Shown piece by piece: positions 10,555 to 19,400 of a DNA stretch of 64,000 nucleotides (its first letter is position 1; every line of letters starts with the position of its first letter). The stretch is taken from contig JBAZWC010000001.1 in the NCBI GenBank assembly GCA_041660565.1, positions 70,197 to 134,196 on the forward strand. The letters are read 5' to 3'. Below the pieces are notes generated by a model, which saw only the letters and a program-made list of their open reading frames with translations, ran no database searches and was not told the origin of the DNA. The position numbers and the translations under genes were made by a program. Origin of the DNA: Patescibacteria group bacterium. GTDB lineage: Bacteria > Patescibacteriota > UBA1384 > CAJBMM01.

Positions 10555-11373
10555 TTACAGTTTATTAGTTCTTTGGCGGCGTTCGCGTTCTTTGGCATCA
10601 TCTAGTGCGTCTTTATAAAGTGATTTTCGGGGCTCCAAAGACCAAGCCCTAGATAAATATCGCACTGCTTTGCCGTACTGTCTAAGCGATAAATACGCTT
10701 GGCCTAAATCAAAGTGCCAGGCGGCATTTTTATCATCTTCCCCAACCGCTTTTTCAAAGTACTCTACTGCCTCATTATAGTTTTCGCCAATTTGAGCCAC
10801 TCGGCCTAAATAATGCAGAATATACCCATTGGCTGGATCATATTTATAAGCTTGCATAAAAGCTTCCTCTGCATCAACAAGCGCACTATTTACTCTTTTG
10901 GGCCCATCAACCGCTGCGGGCATAGCTGTGGCGATGCCTCGTTCTAAATAAATTTGTCCAAGCCGATAGTAAGCAAGAACGCACTTTGGATCAATTGCGG
11001 CCGCATTCAAAAACTGTTTTTCCGCCATATCTAGCTGGCGCAGGTCAAAATACTTCTGCCCGTCTGCCAGTAAATTTTTTAGCTGTGAATTTGTTGCCGT
11101 CTGATATTGATTAATATTTGGCTCAGCGGACTTGGTTACATCTGGCTGTGGCTCAGAAATTTGGTCGTTTTCACTCATCGAATCATTAAAAGGCACTCGC
11201 ATGGGGCCGAATTTCTTAAAATGCAATTGCGGCAGTTTAAACTTAAACTTAAACAACCGTCTATTTTGCGTTGCTTTTGGCGCCACCCCTTCTGCGGTTT
11301 CGGGAAAACGGCGCACTAATATGATAAAGATAATTGCCGCCGCCACAAAAATGATAATTTCAAATATTCCCAT
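10555..11373 (-). CDS. Membrane-anchored tetratricopeptide-repeat (TPR) protein
   Basis: N-terminal TM IIIFVAAAIIFIILV; repeated A..Y..LG / AL..DP TPR-like helices. Confidence 0.6.
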   Translation of the reverse strand: MGIFEIIIFVAAAIIFIILVRRFPETAEGVAPKATQNRRLFKFKFKLPQLHFKKFGPMRVPFNDSMSENDQISEPQPDVTKSAEPNINQYQTATNSQLKNLLADGQKYFDLRQLDMAEKQFLNAAAIDPKCVLAYYRLGQIYLERGIATAMPAAVDGPKRVNSALVDAEEAFMQAYKYDPANGYILHYLGRVAQIGENYNEAVEYFEKAVGEDDKNAAWHFDLGQAYLSLRQYGKAVRYLSRAWSLEPRKSLYKDALDDAKERERRQRTNKL

Positions 11374-12064
11374 TGCGTGTCCTAATTTTAAATTCTAATG
11401 ATTTTGGGAAGGGGATTTGATGCGTAATGTGCAAATAGGTGGTTTCGAGTAAAGCAGTGGCGTTAACCGACGTCTGACTAATTGCTGATCGTATTTCGAT
11501 TAACCATCGAAGTGTGTCTGCATTGGGGTTCATACTTTGTATGATTTCTTTGCTCCACGAATCAATCAAATTTGTGGCCAATCCATTTTTTACTGTCTCA
11601 CCTATTTTCAAGCTCACTGTAGCAAAATCTTGGGCGAAAGCAAGTGGAATAATTTGGCTATCAATCTGAGCCTGATTTTGGAGGTTAAAATAGGCACATC
11701 TAGACAGAATTGTCGGCAAAACGTTGTTAGTGTTCGACAGTAATAAAAAACGGGTTTTTTCGGGGGTATCTTCTAGCACTTTCAGCAAAGTATTGGCCGA
11801 CTCGTGGTTTAATTGGTCGGACTGATAAATGACGCACAAGCGCATTTTGCCTTGAGTTGGGGTGGTGTGAGCCAACCTACGCAACTCTCTGGTCTCGGCT
11901 ACGGTAACAGTTAAGTCTTTGCCAATTTCGGACAGATCGTAAGGCGAAACACTAAATTCAGTTAATGTTTCGGTTAAAATTTGTGGCCAAGAATTTGGTG
12001 TAGAGACAACCAAAAAGCACTGCCCGGTCTGCCAAAAAGTGGATGGGATAATATTATTCATCAC
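11360..12064 (-). CDS. holB: DNA polymerase III delta-prime subunit-like (clamp-loader AAA+ lid region)
   Basis: LLKVLEDTPEKTRFLLL...LPTILSRC matches the delta'/tau box VII-sensor 2 region; 14-nt overlap with the upstream gene. Confidence 0.65.
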   Translation of the reverse strand: MMNNIIPSTFWQTGQCFLVVSTPNSWPQILTETLTEFSVSPYDLSEIGKDLTVTVAETRELRRLAHTTPTQGKMRLCVIYQSDQLNHESANTLLKVLEDTPEKTRFLLLSNTNNVLPTILSRCAYFNLQNQAQIDSQIIPLAFAQDFATVSLKIGETVKNGLATNLIDSWSKEIIQSMNPNADTLRWLIEIRSAISQTSVNATALLETTYLHITHQIPFPKSLEFKIRTRNGNI

Positions 12065-12214: not shown

Positions 12215-13204
12215 TCAAAACTTATAATTTTTTAGTTCTTTTATACTCATCCGTTTTTCGGTCTGCAAACGGCGAATCTCTCTGGCTCTATCTACAGCCT
12301 TGGTTTGGTACAACTGATAACCCCCAACCGAGGTATTATAAATTGGAATCAACCCTTCTTCGGTCCAAAATCTAATTGTGGCAATGGTTTCATTAGCGGC
12401 GGCGGCAACCTGCCCGATTTTCAATAATTTATTGGAAATTTTGCGTGGGCGTGTTTTCTTTGCTGGCTCGGGCAACTCAGTTGATGCTGTTGATGCGATT
12501 GATGACAAAAACAGATTCAAAGAACGGTCAGTTGCCTCAAAAATCAACTGATAATAATCATCCAATTGGGCATCAGCCTGCGCCACCTCCAAATCGGTGA
12601 CATAGCGGCTTTGATCATCAACCCGAATTACGGCCGGTGGATAACCGTTCTGCAATAAAATTAAATTCATTAACAATCGTGCCGTGCGGCAGTTTGCCTC
12701 TACAAATGGGTGAATGGTAATTAACTTTAAATGTGCATCGGCTGCAATTTGAACCGGATGTTTGGTGTGATTGCCGTTTAGCCACTGCACCATTTCGGCC
12801 ATCGCCACGTTAACTTTTTCATTTGGTTCGTTGCGTACGGTGCCGGTACGATATTGTCCGGCGTGAACGCTATCTACTTTATTCATCAATATGCGATGGA
12901 TATGCAAAATTTCTGCTTGGCTAATGTCTTTAGTTTTAATAGTATTCGCCAAGTGACGTACGTATTCCCAAGCTAGCGCGTGATTGTGGGTTTCAATTAA
13001 ATCTCGAGCCTGTGAGTTTTGCCAGTTTTCCACAACTTCTTTTGCTGCGTCCACAGTGATGTTTTTGCCGGATAGGGCAGTGGAGTTGAATGCCAAATCT
13101 AGTTTATACTGATGATTAAGTTTAGCTAAAACATCAACCGAAATGGGCATCGCAGCCATCAGCTGGCGCTGTTTGGTTTCTAATTGTTCGAGAGTAATTG
13201 ACAT
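12215..13204 (-). CDS. Fic/Doc-family protein with degenerate active-site motif (HPFVEANCRTAR) fused to a C-terminal MerR-type HTH
   Basis: The motif aligns to HPFx(D/E)GN(G/K)RxxR with G->A and G/K->C; C-terminal IGQVAAAANETIATIRFWTEEGLI resembles the MerR HTH. Confidence 0.6.
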   Translation of the reverse strand: MSITLEQLETKQRQLMAAMPISVDVLAKLNHQYKLDLAFNSTALSGKNITVDAAKEVVENWQNSQARDLIETHNHALAWEYVRHLANTIKTKDISQAEILHIHRILMNKVDSVHAGQYRTGTVRNEPNEKVNVAMAEMVQWLNGNHTKHPVQIAADAHLKLITIHPFVEANCRTARLLMNLILLQNGYPPAVIRVDDQSRYVTDLEVAQADAQLDDYYQLIFEATDRSLNLFLSSIASTASTELPEPAKKTRPRKISNKLLKIGQVAAAANETIATIRFWTEEGLIPIYNTSVGGYQLYQTKAVDRAREIRRLQTEKRMSIKELKNYKF

Positions 13205-13219
13205 ACAAACCTCAGCATT

Positions 13220-13324
13220 GTCATTCCGGACTTGATCCGGAATCTATATAAAAGACTGGAAGGGATTTATTCTTAGATTTCTCCAACACAGTCGTGGTGA
13301 CCCACTCCTAGGGTCGAAATGACA
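13220..13324. repeat. Hybrid palindromic repeat (GTCATTCCGG hairpin unit plus AGATTTCTCC...GGGTCGAAATGACA module)
   Basis: Shares both module types. Confidence 0.6.
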
Positions 13325-13430
13325 TATAACAATATTTCGTCATCCATCATTTACCTACCTCTATTAAGCATAAACCATCACCTAATACATTACAATATCA
13401 TATAATATCACGCTTAGTACACCTAGGGTA

Positions 13431-13459
13431 TTGACAAATATAATCTAGTATGTTAATAT
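13431..13459 (+). promoter_or_regulatory. Near-consensus sigma70-type promoter (TTGACA-17 bp-TAATAT)
   Basis: Perfect -35 hexamer, 17-nt spacer, 5/6 match at -10; no ORF in the next ~700 nt, T-run at about 13612-13618. Confidence 0.35.
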
Positions 13460-13973
13460 GTAAGAGTTGCAATCAAGCAAGGCTAAAACCAAGCGCGATA
13501 AGCAGCAGAACCCAAAAACAAAAACGTAAAAATGGCTTGTCTAACATATGTCGGTAGCATATCAAGACGCCCCTTCCTCTATATAGGGATTGGACGTCGG
13601 ATGCGGACAGGTCTTTTTTAAAACAAAGCTTTGTTTTTCTGGCATATGGGATTTATCCCACGCGCTGGAGGGCAGATACCTTTTGAATAAGAGGTGACTG
13701 TTCCAAAGTTAGATCAACCAAGTCTTGGCAAAAATTGTCAAATTACTGGTTCACCTAATCCTTTGGAACAGAACTCTTCTTTCAGCAAAAGTAGGTTGAT
13801 GGCGAAGAGAGCCGTAAATATCAGATCTTGTAGAATTTTTCTTCAAGACGGCGCTCGCCAAAAACTGCTGACAAGTAGACACATGGAGCGGGGACAACAC
13901 CACCTAAAAGTAGATACCCCAGAACCGGCACCTTAACAAATTATCCTTTTCTCTGGTTGACATACATTTTATT

Positions 13974-14061
13974 GTCATTCCGGACTAGATCCGGAATCTA
14001 TGTATAAGAATCCTCGTCTTAGGCTAGGAAAGATTTATTCTTTACTAACCCAAGCCGATGG
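13974..14061. repeat. GTCATTCCGG hairpin unit plus the about 60-nt module GGCTAGGAAAGATTTATTCTTTACTAACCCAAGCCGAYGG
   Basis: The same 60-nt module recurs at 15170-15224. Confidence 0.6.
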
Positions 14062-14215
14062 AGTTTAACTTCGTCTGGCCTACCCCTCCCCGGGGTTAAT
14101 GCCGTCACGGCGTTGGGGAAACGGCATCTGGTGCGTATGGCGTAAGCCGCGCACCAAGTATTCGGTCAGCGTAACCGTAAGGCGAAGTTGACCAGATCCC
14201 TGGGAGGGGAAAAAG

Positions 14216-15037
14216 ATGGAATCCGCTAACGGGCAGATCGTCGACGCGTCTCATGTCGTCGACAATCCAGAGTCGGATCTCGTGACGATCTTGTCGCAGA
14301 ACGGTGGACGGACTATCGAAGTGATAGTGCCCGACGTCTGTGACCACGAGACGGTTTCTGAGCGCCTTTCGAGGCTGCTTGGAAAGCACGTTTCCGACTC
14401 CGACCTTTCCTCCGTTTGGGTTGGAGAGGAAGAGAAGCAATGCGCTTCTCTGATAGTCTCCTCCGACAAGGAGGGAGTACTGCAGGTCGCCCATAAGGAG
14501 GGCAACAAGATGAACCGCAAGCAAGCTTTGGCGCTGATTGGCGCCGCCGTGTCGTTCGGGTACACCGTGGTGGAAACGTTCGCGGACAACCGCGCGCTCC
14601 CCGCGTTCAGTCCTGCAGGCCGCCCGGGTTCCTGGTCGGATGTCGCGGAAGCGTATTACGACCGCTTCTTCGACCTTGATGACCTCTCCCAGTGGGAGTC
14701 GGTCGTCGGGCTGCTCCAGAAATGGTCCCACACGCGTGAGGCCTTCGGGATTCTGATCCCGACCCGGGACGATTTTGTCCTGGAGATCGAGCGCGCTGTT
14801 CGGCAGCGCCCGATCGACGGGGAGATGTACGTTCCCGAGGCTATGCCGCTTGCCGAGGCGGTCTGTAAGATGATCATGCTCGGCGCCACCACGGAGGAAA
14901 TCCTCGGCTGGGTCGAGGAGATCAACCTCCACACTGACGGCCAGGCACCGATCCTGTTCGACGCAATCGAGCAGGCGAACGAGCCTCGGTCGGAGCGGGG
15001 TGGCCGCGGCCGCGAGGCGGCCGAGGCCAGCAACTAG
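14216..15037 (+). CDS. Hypothetical protein, cassette 1 of high-GC island
   Basis: 273-aa ORF, about 60% GC, strong RBS GGGAGGGG 7 nt upstream; the opposite-strand ORF 14105..15130 is judged a GC shadow. Confidence 0.5.
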   Translation: MESANGQIVDASHVVDNPESDLVTILSQNGGRTIEVIVPDVCDHETVSERLSRLLGKHVSDSDLSSVWVGEEEKQCASLIVSSDKEGVLQVAHKEGNKMNRKQALALIGAAVSFGYTVVETFADNRALPAFSPAGRPGSWSDVAEAYYDRFFDLDDLSQWESVVGLLQKWSHTREAFGILIPTRDDFVLEIERAVRQRPIDGEMYVPEAMPLAEAVCKMIMLGATTEEILGWVEEINLHTDGQAPILFDAIEQANEPRSERGGRGREAAEASN

Positions 15038-15044
15038 TTCCACG

Positions 15045-15116
15045 GAGGGGTGGGTGCAACCGCACCCGCCTCTCCTCATTCCAAAGTTTCCAAAAGGTTG
15101 GGGACTTTGTAGATGA
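15045..15116 (+). promoter_or_regulatory. Conserved inter-cassette element, copy 1: GC hairpin (terminator-like) plus 45-nt box CTCCTCATTCCAAAGTTTCCAAAAGGTTGGGGACTTTGTAGATGA
   Basis: Hairpin GGGTGGGTGC-AAC-CGCACCCGCC; 28-nt palindrome CAAAGT..ACTTTG at 15082-15109; repeated 4 times in the island. Confidence 0.6.
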
Positions 15117-15125
15117 TTTCCTCTT

Positions 15126-15224
15126 GTCATTCCCGCGAAGGCGGGAATCCAGTCTATGAAAAACTTTCGATAATCCTTGGTTTAGGCTAGGAAAGATTTA
15201 TTCTTTACTAACCCAAGCCGACGG
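15126..15224. repeat. GTCATTCC(CG..CG)GGAATC hairpin plus 60-nt GGCTAGGAAAGATTTATTC module
   Basis: Low-GC host-type repeat inserted between cassettes 1 and 2. Confidence 0.6.
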
Positions 15225-15287
15225 ATGGCTTGATGTCCGAGTCTATAAGTCCTGACCCAAATGGGCAGGCAGGGCAAGGAGATTTCA

Positions 15288-15758
15288 ATGGAATTCGACG
15301 CTTCGTACAAACGGGCAAAGCGGCTGCTCGGTCAGAACTTCAGGGCGATGTGTCGTGAGGCTCACGCCCTGGCAGCGATGGGTTTGCCCATCGCGGTCTA
15401 CCAAGACCATGTCGTTCTGCTCCCAACGTATGGGACGACGAACGATTTCTTCTATCTCATGGCCGAGGGGATAGAGCATTGGTACGTCCGGTTCTGGTGC
15501 TGCAACGCCGAACCGGAGTTCGGCCAGACCGACTACCATGAGTCCCAGCAGATTGGCTCAGGCAGTCTGGAGTTGGTTGCCCGATGGTTCCGCGAGCAGT
15601 TAGAAGCTCGTGGCTGCCAGGCCGCCCAGCTGGAGAAGTTGGCCGCTGTTATGGCGGCTATCCTGCCGGAGGCGGCTTCCGTCGCGGCTCCGACAGACTT
15701 GGAGCCACCGAGGTTCACCCTCGGTGATCAGCTCCGAGAGATGGAGACCGGCAAGTAG
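15288..15758 (+). CDS. Hypothetical protein, cassette 2
   Basis: 156 aa from ATG at 15288 with RBS AAGGAG 7 nt upstream (the ORF track extends to 15261). Confidence 0.5.
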   Translation: MEFDASYKRAKRLLGQNFRAMCREAHALAAMGLPIAVYQDHVVLLPTYGTTNDFFYLMAEGIEHWYVRFWCCNAEPEFGQTDYHESQQIGSGSLELVARWFREQLEARGCQAAQLEKLAAVMAAILPEAASVAAPTDLEPPRFTLGDQLREMETGK

Positions 15759-15765
15759 CTCACAC

Positions 15766-15839
15766 GGAGGGGTGGGTGCGCAAGCGCCCACTCCTCTTCA
15801 TTCCAAAGTTTCCAATACGTTGGGGACTTTGTAGATGAA
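15766..15839 (+). promoter_or_regulatory. Conserved inter-cassette element, copy 2 (hairpin plus 45-nt box)
   Basis: ggaggggtgggtgcgcaagcgcccactcctc followed by ttcattccaaagtttccaatacgttggggactttgtagatga. Confidence 0.6.
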
Positions 15840-15843
15840 GAAA

Positions 15844-15955
15844 TGACTCCCCGTAGGGGATGGTATACACTTCGGGTGGGTCGCGACGACTCGCACCTAC
15901 CCACGACCCGCCTGACTAGGGGTGAAACTCTGGCAGGCAACAGGGGAGAACGGAA
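15844..15955 (+). ncRNA. Conserved about 110-nt leader type A, copy 1 (candidate cis-regulatory 5' UTR)
   Basis: More than 90% identical to 16791-16899 although the downstream ORFs are unrelated; contains CCCCGTAGGGG and GGGTGGGTCGCGACGACTCGCACCTACCCACGACCC stem potentials; ends in RBS GGGGAGA. Confidence 0.4.
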
Positions 15956-16618
15956 ATGGCTACAGGAAATATGTCATGGCTTGGCTTGGAAGTTGAGCCG
16001 ACCGTCGACGCAAAGTACCGCGTCGATTGGCAGCAATATGGTGGCCCGCGCGGCGGCCAGATGGTCGTCCGCTATGCCACTCGCGAGTGGCTGGAGATGG
16101 CGGTCAACTTCCGGGTTGCACCGTACACCGGAGAGCACTTCATCTCCGACTCCTGCTTCGAGAGCAGCCGGGAGGAGGAGTACATGGTGGCCGCCGCTCG
16201 CCGAACGGCAATGCGGCACGGCATGCTCCCTGACGTGCCAGGCCCGCAGGTCGGATATTGTGTCCGCCTGCAGCACTACCTGGGCCAGTGGTCGGCGGAG
16301 AACTTCCCGGCGACCACGAACGTGCCAGACGGGCATGTGGCGTCTCGGGGCACCGATCAGATGCCCATCTTCGGAATCGTCGATGGGTGGGCGGATGACA
16401 CAATATCCGGCCCTCCCACCCTTCGGGTGATCGTGAAGCGTGAAGCGCTCAGAATCATTGAGCGCGAGGTCAGGGCAGCCGCCAGTGCGGATGCCAGGGT
16501 TGCCCGTACCGGCTTCCTCACGGCGGAGGACGTGGACATGTCCACGGGCACGTATTCGCGTGTCTACGAGGCAATGATTCGGGTTTACCGTGGACATGTC
16601 GTAGCCTCAAACCAGTAG
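15956..16618 (+). CDS. Hypothetical protein, cassette 3
   Basis: 220 aa, about 62% GC; overlapping minus-strand ORFs judged GC shadows. Confidence 0.5.
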   Translation: MATGNMSWLGLEVEPTVDAKYRVDWQQYGGPRGGQMVVRYATREWLEMAVNFRVAPYTGEHFISDSCFESSREEEYMVAAARRTAMRHGMLPDVPGPQVGYCVRLQHYLGQWSAENFPATTNVPDGHVASRGTDQMPIFGIVDGWADDTISGPPTLRVIVKREALRIIEREVRAAASADARVARTGFLTAEDVDMSTGTYSRVYEAMIRVYRGHVVASNQ

Positions 16619-16716
16619 ACATACGCAATAGAAGTTTTTGGATCGTTCTTCGGCAAAAACGATCTGGCATCCCGATGCGCATAATCGGGAGGTTCGCGAT
16701 CCAAATCGCATTCGTT

Positions 16717-16788
16717 GAGAGGCGGGTGCAACCGCACCCGCCTCTCCTCATTCCAAAGTTTCCAAAAGGTTGGAGACTTTGTAGATGA
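16717..16788 (+). promoter_or_regulatory. Conserved inter-cassette element, copy 3 (perfect 13-bp hairpin GAGAGGCGGGTGC-AAC-GCACCCGCCTCTC plus 45-nt box)
   Basis: Read directly. Confidence 0.6.
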
Positions 16789-16790
16789 AT

Positions 16791-16899
16791 CGACTCCCCG
16801 TAGGGGATGGCAATACGCTTCGGGTGGGTCGCGACGACTCGCACCTACCCACGACCCGCCTGACTAGGGGTGAAACTCTGGCAGGCATAAGGGGAGACG
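16791..16899 (+). ncRNA. Conserved leader type A, copy 2
   Basis: See 15844-15955. Confidence 0.4.
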
Positions 16900-17475
16900 A
16901 TGAGTACGACAACAAGTGGAACCAGCCCTGGGCGACGCACCTTCTACTACGGGCGGTCTGGTGGCTTGCACGCCACCGGCGAGGCAGCAACGCGGCTGCT
17001 GGAGATCATCAGGCAGCCGCCGTACGATCTCCTCCCGTTCCTTGGAGGAGAGGATATTAGTCTTCCAGAAGGTACGGGTCTCGCAGATGTCGCGAAGTGC
17101 GAGGCGTTTTTCACGCCATGGGTCAAGGTCTGGGCGCCGCGTCGAATCGTTCGTTACCTGTTGTCGCTGGTGCCAGAGGCGACTTACCACTGGTGTCCGT
17201 GGGAGGGAAAGATTCCTGCGGGATGGCTGACCATCCCGAACTACGACAGCCAGGTTCCTCAGTCCTTCCTGGACTGGGTCGCGGAAACCGGAGGAGTTTT
17301 TGACGAGCCCTCCGGCGGAGCGGTCTGGCTCAAGTGGCCGAACATGCGGCAGGTACATGTCCAGTTCGAGAAGGGGGATTTCCCGGAGGATCTGATTATC
17401 TCCGGAAACGGCCGTAGGTGGTATCTGGAGCGGTATGCCAACGGCCTGGAGATCCTCAACATCCGCGAAGTCTAG
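16900..17475 (+). CDS. Hypothetical protein, cassette 4
   Basis: 191 aa; RBS AGGGGAGA. Confidence 0.5.
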   Translation: MSTTTSGTSPGRRTFYYGRSGGLHATGEAATRLLEIIRQPPYDLLPFLGGEDISLPEGTGLADVAKCEAFFTPWVKVWAPRRIVRYLLSLVPEATYHWCPWEGKIPAGWLTIPNYDSQVPQSFLDWVAETGGVFDEPSGGAVWLKWPNMRQVHVQFEKGDFPEDLIISGNGRRWYLERYANGLEILNIREV

Positions 17476-17481
17476 TCTACT

Positions 17482-17556
17482 GGAGGGTAGGGCGCTGTTC
17501 GCGCCCGCCCTCCTCATTCCAAAGTTTCCAAAAGGTTTGGGGACTTTGTAGATGAA
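17482..17556 (+). promoter_or_regulatory. Conserved inter-cassette element, copy 4
   Basis: GGAGGGTAGGGCGC-TGTTC-GCGCCCGCCCTCC hairpin plus 45-nt box. Confidence 0.6.
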
Positions 17557-17761
17557 TTTAGACAGGTTGGTCGGTTCGTATGTGCATCATATTTTATGAA
17601 TCATATACGAGCTGGTTACCCTGCCAACTTGGCCCTCCTCGGGCTTATGCCGTTCAGGCGTAAGGGAAAAAGATGCGTATGGCGCATAGCCGCGCATCTG
17701 CTTTGTAGGCCATCTAAGCCGTAAGGCAAAGTTGACCGAACCCCTGGGAGGGGGAATAGAA

Positions 17762-18892
17762 ATGGCAACAATCGCCTTTCGCAAGAAGGGTGAGACGGCT
17801 GAGCTGCCGCTCACGGGAATCGTGGATCCGTCCACGGTGACAGTATGTGACACCGCGCCGAGTGGTGCGCCTGTTGCAAAACGGGACCGACTTCAGTATA
17901 AGTTGGTTCCCGTGCCGGAGGGGACGTTGCGCCTTCGGATCCCAGTCGTACAGATCCGGTCGTCGCAGCTGTACGACGGCTGGATGACAGCCCGGGAATT
18001 TTGGGATAACCACCCAGACTTCCGGGGCGCTATCCTTAATGTGGATAGCGGGTTAAGGGCGTTCAGTGTGATCAACACGCTGTTTGCCCGGTTCGAAGAC
18101 GTTTGGCCCGGGCACCCCGTCCCGGCCGATATTCTTGCCGCGAGGCAGGAGATCGCCGAGGAAAAGCGGCTGGCGGCCGCTGAGGAAGTGGCCCGCCAGG
18201 AAAGTCAAAGGTCGTGGGACGCTATGTTGCAGAAAACCCACGACCTGATTGCCCTGGTGATGGGCGATATACCAGAAATCGTTCGTCATCAGAACGAATA
18301 CTGGAGTTTCTCGGTGAGTTCAATGGAGAGGTCGGTTTCTCTCCATACCCTTATACAGGGTGTGCGCTTCTACTTTGTCGCTAAGCATAATGACGTGCAG
18401 GTGGCGGCAAGGAGGGTGCTTGCCCTCCGCGATGAGTGGCGCACCAGTCCTCCCGGGGGCTTCGTCTTTTCTCCTGATACCCAGACGTACTGGGATTTGA
18501 AGGAGGAGAGCTGGAGTGGGGGGTGGCGGCTGGACGAGTGGTGCCGTGTGGCCAAGTGGCTGCGCGAGCAACACGAGGCCGCCGAGAAGGCGGCAACCGC
18601 GGAAGAAGCGGAGGAGCGCCAGTGGCTCTTCCAGTTACGCGGGATCATGATCCCTCCCCTGTACGGGGAGCAGCTGGTGGCTGTCCCAATGGTGGATAGC
18701 CGCGCTTGTTCGCCCAACGAGGCTAACTGGTGGGGGCTTTACACCCCCGACGGCAAGCCATACCTGATCCGTCGCGGGATCCACGTCCGGTACAGCTCTC
18801 TTGAGGGGCTGATCCGGAACCACTATCGGGACGAGCGGGGGATCATGGAGGAAGCGCTTTTATTGCTTTCTTCATTGATCCACTCGCTGTAG
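17762..18892 (+). CDS. Hypothetical protein, cassette 5
   Basis: 376 aa from ATG 17762 (RBS GGGAGGGGG). Its about 130-nt leader (type B) is about 80% similar to the leader of cassette 1 (14090-14215). Confidence 0.5.
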   Translation: MATIAFRKKGETAELPLTGIVDPSTVTVCDTAPSGAPVAKRDRLQYKLVPVPEGTLRLRIPVVQIRSSQLYDGWMTAREFWDNHPDFRGAILNVDSGLRAFSVINTLFARFEDVWPGHPVPADILAARQEIAEEKRLAAAEEVARQESQRSWDAMLQKTHDLIALVMGDIPEIVRHQNEYWSFSVSSMERSVSLHTLIQGVRFYFVAKHNDVQVAARRVLALRDEWRTSPPGGFVFSPDTQTYWDLKEESWSGGWRLDEWCRVAKWLREQHEAAEKAATAEEAEERQWLFQLRGIMIPPLYGEQLVAVPMVDSRACSPNEANWWGLYTPDGKPYLIRRGIHVRYSSLEGLIRNHYRDERGIMEEALLLLSSLIHSL

Positions 18893-19185
18893 CCCAAAGC
18901 GTTTTGGTAGTTTTTCGCATAATGAAACTAGCCACTGGGGTGGGGAAGAAAATAAATCTTCCTCACCCAACTGTCCCCCGCAAGAAACGGGGCTGATGAG
19001 TCGTTGAAAATTACGACGAAACAGATAAGGAAATTAAATCAGCTTGAGCGTAAAAAACCAAGCATGCTCACCGACGGATTATAGCCGTTTTGGCACCGCA
19101 AGATTATATAATCGTTTTAGCAATAAGACGGTTGTTACTACCGAATCTTGCGGGACCAAAGCGGCTTTTTGAGTACCAAAATTCT

Positions 19186-19400
19186 AAATCCGAAGCACTA
19201 AATCCGAAGCACTAAATTCGAAACAAATTCGAAATTGAAAATTCAAAATCGTAAAACGGGCGGACATCCCCCTTCGCCACCTCCTACGCTACCTCCTACG
19301 CTAAAGCTTCGGAAGGTCAAGAAAGCTACGGAAGGTCAAGAAGGCTACGGAGGACAAGTATGAGTCCGCCCCTACGGTGCTCGTCAGGCTGACCGTAAGG
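19186..19400. repeat. Microsatellite-like (AAATYCGAAGCACTAAAT) plus GGGCGGACATCCCCC..CCTACGCTAAAGCTTCGGAAGGTCAAGAA..GTCCGCCCC module repeat
   Basis: Module near-identical to 60530-60640 and partly to 6499-6560. Confidence 0.6.

Follow-up and report, generated by a model that had tools for sequence, protein, structure and literature searches.

The window studied here, a 64,000-nt stretch of a Patescibacteria group bacterium genome (contig JBAZWC010000001.1) to which all positions refer, carries at 12215-13204 a gene for a 329-residue protein with a Fic domain and, at its C-terminus, a winged helix-turn-helix (HTH) of the MerR type. Sequence comparison identifies this protein as a unique, long-branch and fast-evolving outlier of an otherwise canonical Fic-MerR family. 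Both glycines of its anion nest, its inhibitory glutamate and part of its target-docking flap are gone, while the HTH and a recognisable copy of the family operator are kept. Since catalytic features are lost and DNA-binding features are kept, loss of regulated AMP transfer and deAMPylation is the most likely reading. We consider it moderately probable that the Fic domain is no longer a regulated AMP transferase/deAMPylase and persists as a folded scaffold, the protein acting mainly as an autoregulated DNA binder.

Domain architecture

The Pfam Fic profile (PF02661) matched residues 94-183 with E = 6.7e-19 and 69 bits (cut-off 24). The C-terminal part scored above the cut-offs of two MerR profiles, MerR_1 (PF13411; residues 262-327, E = 1.8e-12, 47.6 bits, cut-off 21.6) and MerR (PF00376; 30.3 bits, cut-off 28.2), and in a PDB sequence search residues 261-325 were matched by CadR/MerR regulators (E of about 1e-3). 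The AlphaFold2 model, for which 120 family sequences were used, was confident (mean predicted local distance difference test score, pLDDT, of 91.7) and consisted of a helical Fic domain and a compact winged HTH with a disordered linker between them. The HTH comprises helices 263-269, 274-282, 302-316 and 321-325 and a wing at 297-299. The sequence-only reading of this stretch had proposed a Fic domain, a non-canonical active-site motif and a C-terminal MerR-type HTH, and had called for a structure prediction; all three features were confirmed by these analyses, and the model shows both folds. A misalignment of the motif, which had been named as a possible objection, is excluded because the motif of human FICD, HPFIDGNGRTSR, aligns straight onto HPFVEANCRTAR.

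The layout differs from that of MerR regulators, in which an N-terminal HTH is followed by a coiled-coil helix and a C-terminal effector-binding region. Here the HTH is C-terminal, helix 321-325 is the last element of the chain, and there is no long coiled coil of the kind by which MerR proteins dimerise; the MerR Pfam match reaches profile position 65 of 69. An identical protein is already in the database as "MAG: Fic family protein [Patescibacteria group bacterium]" (MAG, metagenome-assembled genome) on a 516-kb contig, and a lookup of further contigs encoding it found none on record.

The Fic part resembles FICD and not Doc

Among solved structures, the closest relative by sequence was human FICD/HYPE (E = 1.7e-30, residues 13-246). 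C. elegans FIC-1 was also among the best matches, whereas Doc-type proteins were absent from the matches of this PDB search. FICD structures were again the top PDB matches when the model was compared by Foldseek (template modelling, TM, score of 0.6-0.65). Because FICD tops both the sequence and the fold comparisons, the protein is assigned to the FICD-like class II Fic proteins. H165 aligns with the motif His of FICD and is conserved across the Fic-MerR family. In the model, helix 23-44 sits N-terminal to the Fic core at the class II inhibitory-helix position, and the inhibitory motif of FICD, TVAIEGN, aligns onto STALSGK, in which S41, A43 and G46 are kept. Thus, the protein has the (S/T)xxxE(G/N) helix that had been suggested as a check, and has it where the homologous helix lies, but with Ser in place of the Glu (SxxxSG; S41-T-A-L-S45-G46).

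The earlier view that the motif is closer to that of Doc-type kinases did not hold. The only common trait is Ala at position 6; position 5 is Glu, and position 8 is Cys in place of the Lys that defines Doc. The NCBIfam Doc model (TIGR01550) gave 32.9 bits, under its cut-off of 38.65, and membership of Doc was rejected on these grounds. No Phd-like partner gene was found, and only one 25-codon reading frame, in a repeat-derived leader, lies between the promoter and the Fic gene. The module may be toxin-like, as had been suggested. A defence-system assignment was also rejected: the PADLOC matches to PDC-S04 and SoFic (E = 1e-20) reflect general Fic-domain similarity, and no system context was found. 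The PHROG matches are likewise generic Fic similarity.

A widespread Fic-MerR family with canonical elements

A search of 5.8 billion protein clusters gave 277 matches, and the family counts in this study cover the best 120 of these, i.e., 119 relatives and the window protein. All 120 have the Fic + MerR architecture at a length of about 305-395 aa, and the relatives match the window protein with E values from 3e-74 to 4e-53 and a query coverage of 89-100%. The window protein fits the Fic + MerR_1 architecture, the size of about 325-345 aa and the full-length homology by which the family is defined here. The family spans at least 10 phyla, including Patescibacteria, Verrucomicrobiota, Proteobacteria (with a cultured Rhizobium), Chlamydiae, Planctomycetota, Acidobacteriota, Nitrospirota and Margulisiibacteriota, and its members are annotated merely as "Fic family protein". 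The G-N-G core is kept in 117 of the 119 relatives (motif consensus HPFVDGNGRTAR), and the inhibitory helix motif S-N-A-[IL]-E-G-N-T-L is found in every one of them. One otherwise canonical relative (P0064) has GNC, that is, Cys at the second glycine of the nest (G2). To judge from the alignment, the catalytic and regulatory elements are strictly canonical within the family outside the window copy. The Fic-MerR family is a widespread, experimentally uncharacterised, self-contained single-gene module.

In Patescibacteria relatives, the neighbours of the Fic-MerR gene include toxin-antitoxin genes (PIN/MazE/PrlF) and further genes of Fic or Doc-like type. In a few relatives it is directly beside hrcA-grpE-dnaK-dnaJ or right after groES-groEL (L001, 5001-10754; L003, 2647-5975; L020). 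A general link with chaperones, an idea prompted by the action of FICD on the Hsp70 BiP, by weak HspR matches and by two relatives beside chaperone genes, was rejected. When 85 loci and the window were searched by tblastn with six chaperone proteins, only L001/L002, L003 with its close relative L020, and one Fic-only locus were matched, and none of the six was found in the window.

The window copy departs from the family at its catalytic and regulatory elements

In the signature motif of the window protein, H165, N171, R173 and R176 are kept, whereas D169E, G170A and G172C each lie one nucleotide from the family-consensus residue. Both glycines of the anion nest are thereby gone (GNG to ANC). 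The inhibitory Glu is lost by E45S, alongside N42T and N47K. Among the 120 proteins, ANC and SxxxSG each occur in the window protein alone. When a metagenome collection was scanned with the pattern HPFx[DE]ANCRxxR, 4 stretches matched, and none of them lies in a Fic gene. The flap has 12 residues as against 19 in 117 of the 119 relatives, which amounts to a 7-residue deletion, and gaps are found there in the alignment with FICD too. The window protein also carries substitutions at 10 positions that do not vary among the 119 relatives: E36D, N42T, E45S, N47K, T48N, L49I, T54A, G66A, G170A and R198Q.

The changes are unevenly distributed. Among positions with a conservation of at least 85% in the family, 24 of 40 were changed in the N-terminal module (17 non-conservatively), 11 of 56 in the Fic core (5) and 4 of 23 in the HTH (0), a difference significant by a Fisher test (p = 1.1e-5). 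Every one of the 23 HTH positions is thus kept or conservatively replaced. The identity between the window protein and its relatives, compared with that among the relatives, was 26% versus 61% for residues 1-90, 47% versus 59% for the core, and 46% versus 54% for the HTH. When residues 1-92 were searched with HMMER against 1.84 billion representatives, 8 matches were obtained, and the interpretable ones other than the protein itself were N-termini of canonical class II Fic proteins with 29-35% identity. Recombination as the origin of the divergent N-terminus was rejected, as no donor family was found among these matches. Since residues 1-92 match only canonical class II Fic N-termini, it is likely that the N-terminus diverged in place.

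A conserved operator in the promoter of the family

The 200-nt upstream regions of 38 non-redundant family genes were searched for palindromes, with shuffled sequences as control. AACCAT-N13-ATGGTT was found in 7 exact copies, compared with at most 3 in the shuffles, and with up to 3 mismatches allowed, 25 of the 38 loci carried the dyad no farther than about 55 nt from the start codon (the shuffles averaged 3.5 matching loci). The dyad is 23 bp long with a 10-3-10 layout, ACCATAAAGT-N3-ACTTTATGGT. The promoters follow a fixed order of TTGAC(A)/TTGAA, AACCATAAAGTGACACTTTATGGTT (or ...TATACTT) and the start codon, so that the dyad fills the 17-18-nt spacer from the -35 box to a -10-like box, which forms its right arm. 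The -10 box is only 5-10 nt from the start codon in 15 of the 25 loci and a Shine-Dalgarno-like motif is found in 1 of 25, which indicates that the transcripts are mostly leaderless.

A 35-nt position weight matrix (PWM) of the operator was run at a threshold of 18 bits over 1.19 Mb of family loci (10 kb on either side of the gene). It gave 66 matches, all 66 at the 5' end of a family gene; those on the reverse strand were the same palindromes. A regulon was not apparent: there was no operator site off a family gene within 10 kb on either side at any locus, nor elsewhere in the window. Because the site is specific to the promoter of the family itself, it is a signature of autoregulation. In MerR activator-type promoters, the dyad operator lies inside an over-long -35/-10 spacer of 19-20 bp. 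As far as the promoter sequences tell, the ~23-bp dyad with 17-18-nt spacers fits repression better than a MerR-style activation. The TTGACA-AACCATAAAGTGACACTTTATGGTT element is nearly identical in nucleotide sequence across at least 10 phyla (loci L001-L085, e.g., L022, L012, L019 and L041), and this near-identity together with the leaderless genes suggests a horizontally mobile, self-contained module.

The operator and leader of the window gene

The family matrix detected one site upstream of the window gene with 27.1 bits. It is the only match above 16 bits in the window, the next one scoring 13.9 and shuffled windows reaching at most 15.8. The site consists of a -35 box TTGTAA (13390-13395), a 17-nt spacer with the dyad, and a -10 box TATGCT (13367-13372). 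The idea of an autoregulated module, which had been put forward from the gene alone, thus gains concrete support from a conserved dyad in the promoter of the family and one copy of it here. The left distal half-site of this copy is degenerate (AACCAT to ATGTAT), and the operator lies 162 nt upstream of the ATG, compared with the 5-10 nt typical of relatives. Nucleotides 13-125 of the leader consist of dispersed repeat modules that recur at no fewer than 15 further sites of the window, and include the hairpin at 13219-13253 and 13313-13329. The simplest reading is that dispersed repeats were inserted into an originally very short leader and pushed the promoter away. An open reading frame (ORF) of 25 codons, MMDDEILLYVISTLGVGHHDCVGEI (13273-13350, minus strand), begins 16 nt past the -10 box, is preceded by GAGGTAGG and crosses a repeat module. 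This frame is a candidate upstream ORF, or it may have arisen by chance in a leader of repeat origin.

The displaced promoter, the singleton lineage (1 sequence on 1 contig) and the many substitutions at otherwise invariant positions would be expected of a recently inactivated gene nearing its loss, or of a MAG assembly or sequencing artefact, in either case without function. However, the 329-codon ORF is intact and has a good Shine-Dalgarno sequence, and the model is confident throughout. The uneven distribution of non-conservative changes (0 of 23 in the HTH against 17 of 40 in the N-terminus) argues for continued purifying selection on DNA binding. As for an artefact, the three motif changes are separate point substitutions amid an overall divergence of about 60% and show no error pattern. 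We therefore regard a functionless copy as very unlikely.

Predicted consequences for the Fic domain

In Fic proteins, the backbone amides of the nest contact the alpha and beta phosphates, and the motif Asn and two Arg also bind phosphates (PMC3667792). The gamma-phosphate site is taken by the inhibitory Glu, and its replacement by Gly activates all three Fic classes and is detrimental to growth (PMC3667792). A side chain at G2 bars canonical triphosphate binding (PMC8401265). The flap is a beta-hairpin that registers the target by strand augmentation (PMC8401265, PMC3667792), and the inhibitory Glu is needed for deAMPylation by FICD and by CbFic2 of Coxiella burnetii (PMC10628234). Read against these roles, the window sequence is without the features for AMPylation (nest geometry, flap), for its regulation and for deAMPylation (Glu).

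The following mechanism can be proposed for the family. An HTH dimer would bind the 23-bp dyad, which covers the -35/-10 spacer and the -10 box, and would repress the transcript of its own gene, which is mostly leaderless in the family. As there is no MerR coiled coil, the dimer is presumably held by the Fic part; the Fic-mediated dimer would set two MerR HTHs on the dyad and occlude the promoter. When bound to DNA, this dimer may be in an inhibited or a deAMPylating state, as the analogy with CbFic2 and FICD suggests. In the window copy, E45S in the remodelled N-terminal module would remove the inhibitory and deAMPylation Glu, GNG to ANC would place a side chain at G2 and block canonical triphosphate binding, and the flap, which registers the target, is shorter by seven residues. 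The Fic domain would persist as a scaffold for dimerisation or perhaps for nucleotide sensing, with the HTH and a recognisable operator kept. A possible loss of canonical AMPylation, which had been considered from the motif alone, is now also suggested by E45S and the flap deletion in addition to GNG to ANC.

The loss of the inhibitory Glu could also be read the other way, as a release of autoinhibition that leaves a constitutive, toxin-like canonical AMPylase restrained only by transcriptional autorepression. The E-to-G mutants of all three Fic classes are active (PMC3667792), the catalytic His, Asn and two Arg are present, and the promoter and operator are kept. On the other hand, G172C introduces a side chain at a place that has to be free of one for triphosphate to bind canonically (PMC8401265), G170A alters the nest, and the flap deletion adds to these changes. 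Moreover, the E-to-G change harms growth and so would be selected against unless the enzyme were also crippled, which the co-occurring nest changes fit. Such a deregulated AMPylase is unlikely.

The same changes might instead have created a different catalysis in a protein that is still DNA-tethered and autoregulated. The candidates are a Doc-like phosphotransfer with an inverted nucleotide, the use of another diphosphate donor, or a de-modification with Cys172 standing in for Glu. In Doc, whose motif is HxFx(D/N)(A/G)NKR (PMC4177925), Lys at G2 inverts ATP and makes the protein a kinase (PMC8401265, PMC4177925). The inverted ATP binding of Doc goes along with Ala as residue 6 of the motif and with a residue 8 that has a side chain. 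Among the Bartonella effector proteins (Beps), Bep8 has Glu at G2, the Bep5 clade is without the flap, and those with Glu at G2 have been proposed as deAMPylases (PMC8401265); in the window protein, the loss of Glu coincides with the gain of a side chain at G2. The retention of His165, Asn171, Arg173 and Arg176 despite the long branch, the intact ORF and the confident model also point in this direction. Nevertheless, this retention is statistically unsurprising, because about 80% of the conserved Fic-core positions are kept. The Doc-defining Lys is missing and TIGR01550 stays under its cut-off. The motif HPFx[DE]ANCRxxR is in no other real Fic gene of the metagenome collection, so there is no conserved subfamily to indicate a selected activity, and the shortened flap takes away the general target-docking device. 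We thus consider a re-tooled enzyme possible but rather unlikely. A coordinated change, in which Cys172 at G2 compensates for E45S and the flap is reshaped to yield a DNA-tethered Fic protein with a chemistry undescribed for the fold, seems quite doubtful. Candidates for such chemistry are a de-modification or a phosphotransfer that depends on the thiol, or a nucleotide switch that responds to redox state and governs the binding of DNA.

Several observations weigh against the reading that we prefer, a non-catalytic scaffold in an autoregulated DNA-binding protein. The four catalytic residues are all kept and D169E is permitted by the canonical motif, so the domain may still bind phosphates or nucleotides or carry out some chemistry on them. 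Doc, an active enzyme, also has Ala at motif position 6, and Cys at G2 may be tolerated, given its presence in P0064. The window operator, with its degenerate half-site and its distance from the ATG, may no longer be functional. In the databases searched, the protein has no close relative (nearest 42-44% identity), and a literature search found no study of a Fic + MerR fusion and no biochemical test of any family member.

Comparison with known Fic systems

Human FICD, an AMPylase and deAMPylase of BiP (e.g., PDB 4U04 and 6I7G), shares with the window protein the helical Fic core and the inhibitory helix at the homologous position. It has the canonical HPFIDGNGRTSR, TVAIEGN, a full flap and TPR domains but no HTH, whereas the window protein has ANC, SxxxSG, a MerR HTH and a flap that lacks 7 residues.

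CccR of Yersinia pseudotuberculosis (PDB 7XUX) likewise has an N-terminal class II Fic part and a C-terminal HTH in one chain, and it represses its own promoter via a palindrome at the -35/-10 boxes (PMC9755527). It is the best analogue of how the operator arrangement of the family may work, although the analogy is only functional. Similarity of CccR to the window protein is weak (E = 0.0047), it is SoFic-like with another HTH type, and its operator has a 10-N26-10 layout as opposed to 10-N3-10 in the Fic-MerR family. The motif of CccR is also canonical, and the protein, which is secreted through the type VI secretion system, is active in the AMPylation of FtsZ.

CbFic2 (PDB 8CIL) and SoFic (PDB 3EQX) are class II Fic proteins with a C-terminal winged HTH, as is the window protein. 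In CbFic2, DNA binding leads to dimerisation and makes the enzyme change over from AMPylation to deAMPylation (PMC10628234), which is a plausible model, by analogy, for the canonical Fic-MerR proteins. In contrast to the window protein, which lacks the Glu on which deAMPylation depends, CbFic2 and SoFic have the canonical HPFDDGNGRIGR and TSAIEG, together with a DeoR-type HTH and a DUF4172 N-terminus. Their Foldseek matches to the model were weaker (E = 1e-6 to 1e-7).

Doc, the EF-Tu kinase of Phd-Doc, resembles the window protein in having Ala at position 6 and a residue other than Gly at position 8. It differs in that position 8 is Lys and not Cys, its core has 6 helices and its antitoxin Phd is separate and encoded upstream. 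The window protein has 8 helices, belongs to the FICD-like class II proteins and has no partner gene. The Beps are a precedent for a Fic fold kept with a side chain at G2 (Bep8) or with loss of the flap (Bep5), which has been read as altered or lost catalysis (PMC8401265). They are, however, class I-derived, host-targeted effectors of a type IV secretion system with BID domains, and their degenerate forms lie in conserved subclades, whereas the window protein is a singleton.

Genomic surroundings of the window gene

The positions of the features of the gene and its flanks are collected in Table 1. Dispersed repeats are found in many intergenic regions of the window. The hairpin TGTCATTCCGG-N7-CCGGAATC occurs in 7 exact copies (7678, 7727, 12130, 12180, 13223, 13977 and 38416) with 0 expected by chance. 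The related core TGTCATTYCGR occurs in 21 copies versus 0.16 expected, and further modules are common to many intergenic regions. These repeats are elements of this genome that resemble repetitive extragenic palindromes (REP) or miniature inverted-repeat transposable elements (MITE). The palindromes that flank the Fic gene (12130, 12180 and 13223) were considered as a gene-specific operator or as the ends of a mobile cassette, and both were rejected because the repeat is dispersed throughout the genome, as the counts of hairpin and core across the window show. The two copies just past the stop codon may serve as a transcript-end hairpin that is not specific to the gene.

Downstream on the same strand lie genes for a DNA polymerase III delta'-like protein and a TPR protein (11360-12064 and 10555-11373, both on the minus strand), which overlap by 14 nt and are separated from the Fic gene by about 150 nt of repeat hairpins. 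This pair (10555-12064) may be co-transcribed with the Fic gene. On the other side, a strong sigma-70-like promoter on the plus strand (13431-13459; TTGACA, 17 nt, TAATAT, extended TG) is divergent from the Fic-MerR promoter at a distance of about 35 nt. In the ~500 nt that follow it (13467-13970), no Rfam match and no convincing ORF was found, the only candidate being an 80-codon ORF with a GTG start (13694-13936). This region could encode a small RNA or a small protein that has escaped annotation.

The Fic gene is separated from a tRNA-Thr/Tyr/Thr cluster by a GC-rich island (14000-19400; 58-59% GC compared with about 42% around it) with five ORFs on the plus strand (14216-15037, 15261-15758, 15956-16618, 16900-17475 and 17732-18892). 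None of the five had a Pfam or PHROG match, and the largest is an ORFan that matched itself alone among 5.8 billion clusters. The ORFs are cassette-like, each with a repeat module bearing a Shine-Dalgarno sequence before it and a conserved 72-nt hairpin-plus-promoter-like module after it (15045, 15767, 16717 and 17483); the copies at 15767 and 16717 extend into a repeated unit of about 183 nt. About 75 nt past the last ORF, a near-perfect type III hammerhead ribozyme is found (18968-19027, plus strand), with the CUGAUGAG...CGAAAC core, a GUC cleavage site and intact stems I and II. It matched the full length of the Rfam model RF00008 with 41.8 bits (gathering score 48.5; E = 1e-6). A match to mir-228 on a long hairpin beyond it (19078-19174) was judged spurious.

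Table 1. Features of the Fic-MerR gene and its flanking regions in the window
Feature	Position	Strand	Basis or remark
Coding sequence, 329 aa, Fic domain and C-terminal MerR-type winged HTH	12215..13204	(-)	ATG start; stop codon 12215-12217
Inhibitory-helix motif position, STALSGK, residues 41-47	13064..13084	(-)	SNA[IL]EGN in 119/119 relatives
Flap (target-docking beta-hairpin), residues 119-130	12815..12850	(-)	Alignment with relatives
Fic signature motif HPFVEANCRTAR, residues 165-176	12677..12712	(-)	Comparison with family consensus HPFVDGNGRTAR
Low-confidence (disordered) linker from Fic domain to HTH, residues 244-256	12437..12475	(-)	AlphaFold2 model
MerR-type winged HTH, residues 260-329	12218..12427	(-)	Pfam, PDB search, AlphaFold2 model
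HTH string IGQVAAAANETIATIRFWTEEGLI, residues 263-286	12347..12418	(-)	
Shine-Dalgarno-like GAGG, 5 nt before ATG	13210..13213	(-)	Relatives mostly leaderless
Leader from operator to ATG, 159 nt	13205..13363	(-)	Repeat comparison
Family-type promoter/operator	13364..13398	(-)	PWM, 27.1 bits
Two copies of palindrome ATTCCGG-N7-CCGGAAT, just past Fic stop codon	12126..12204	(.)	Repeat scan

Implications for the Fic-MerR family

Current understanding is not overturned by these results, as there are precedents both for degenerate Fic motifs and for autoregulated Fic-HTH proteins. How class II Fic proteins are regulated is recognised as an unsettled issue (PMC9755527, PMC10628234), and the most useful product of the analysis is the family operator, a DNA site that lends itself to direct tests in many of these proteins. 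The window copy is a natural "triple knockout" in which the nest glycines, a portion of the flap and the inhibitory Glu are missing but the HTH is intact. It could thus expose a non-catalytic function of such proteins, as a DNA-binding protein or scaffold, or a new Fic chemistry.

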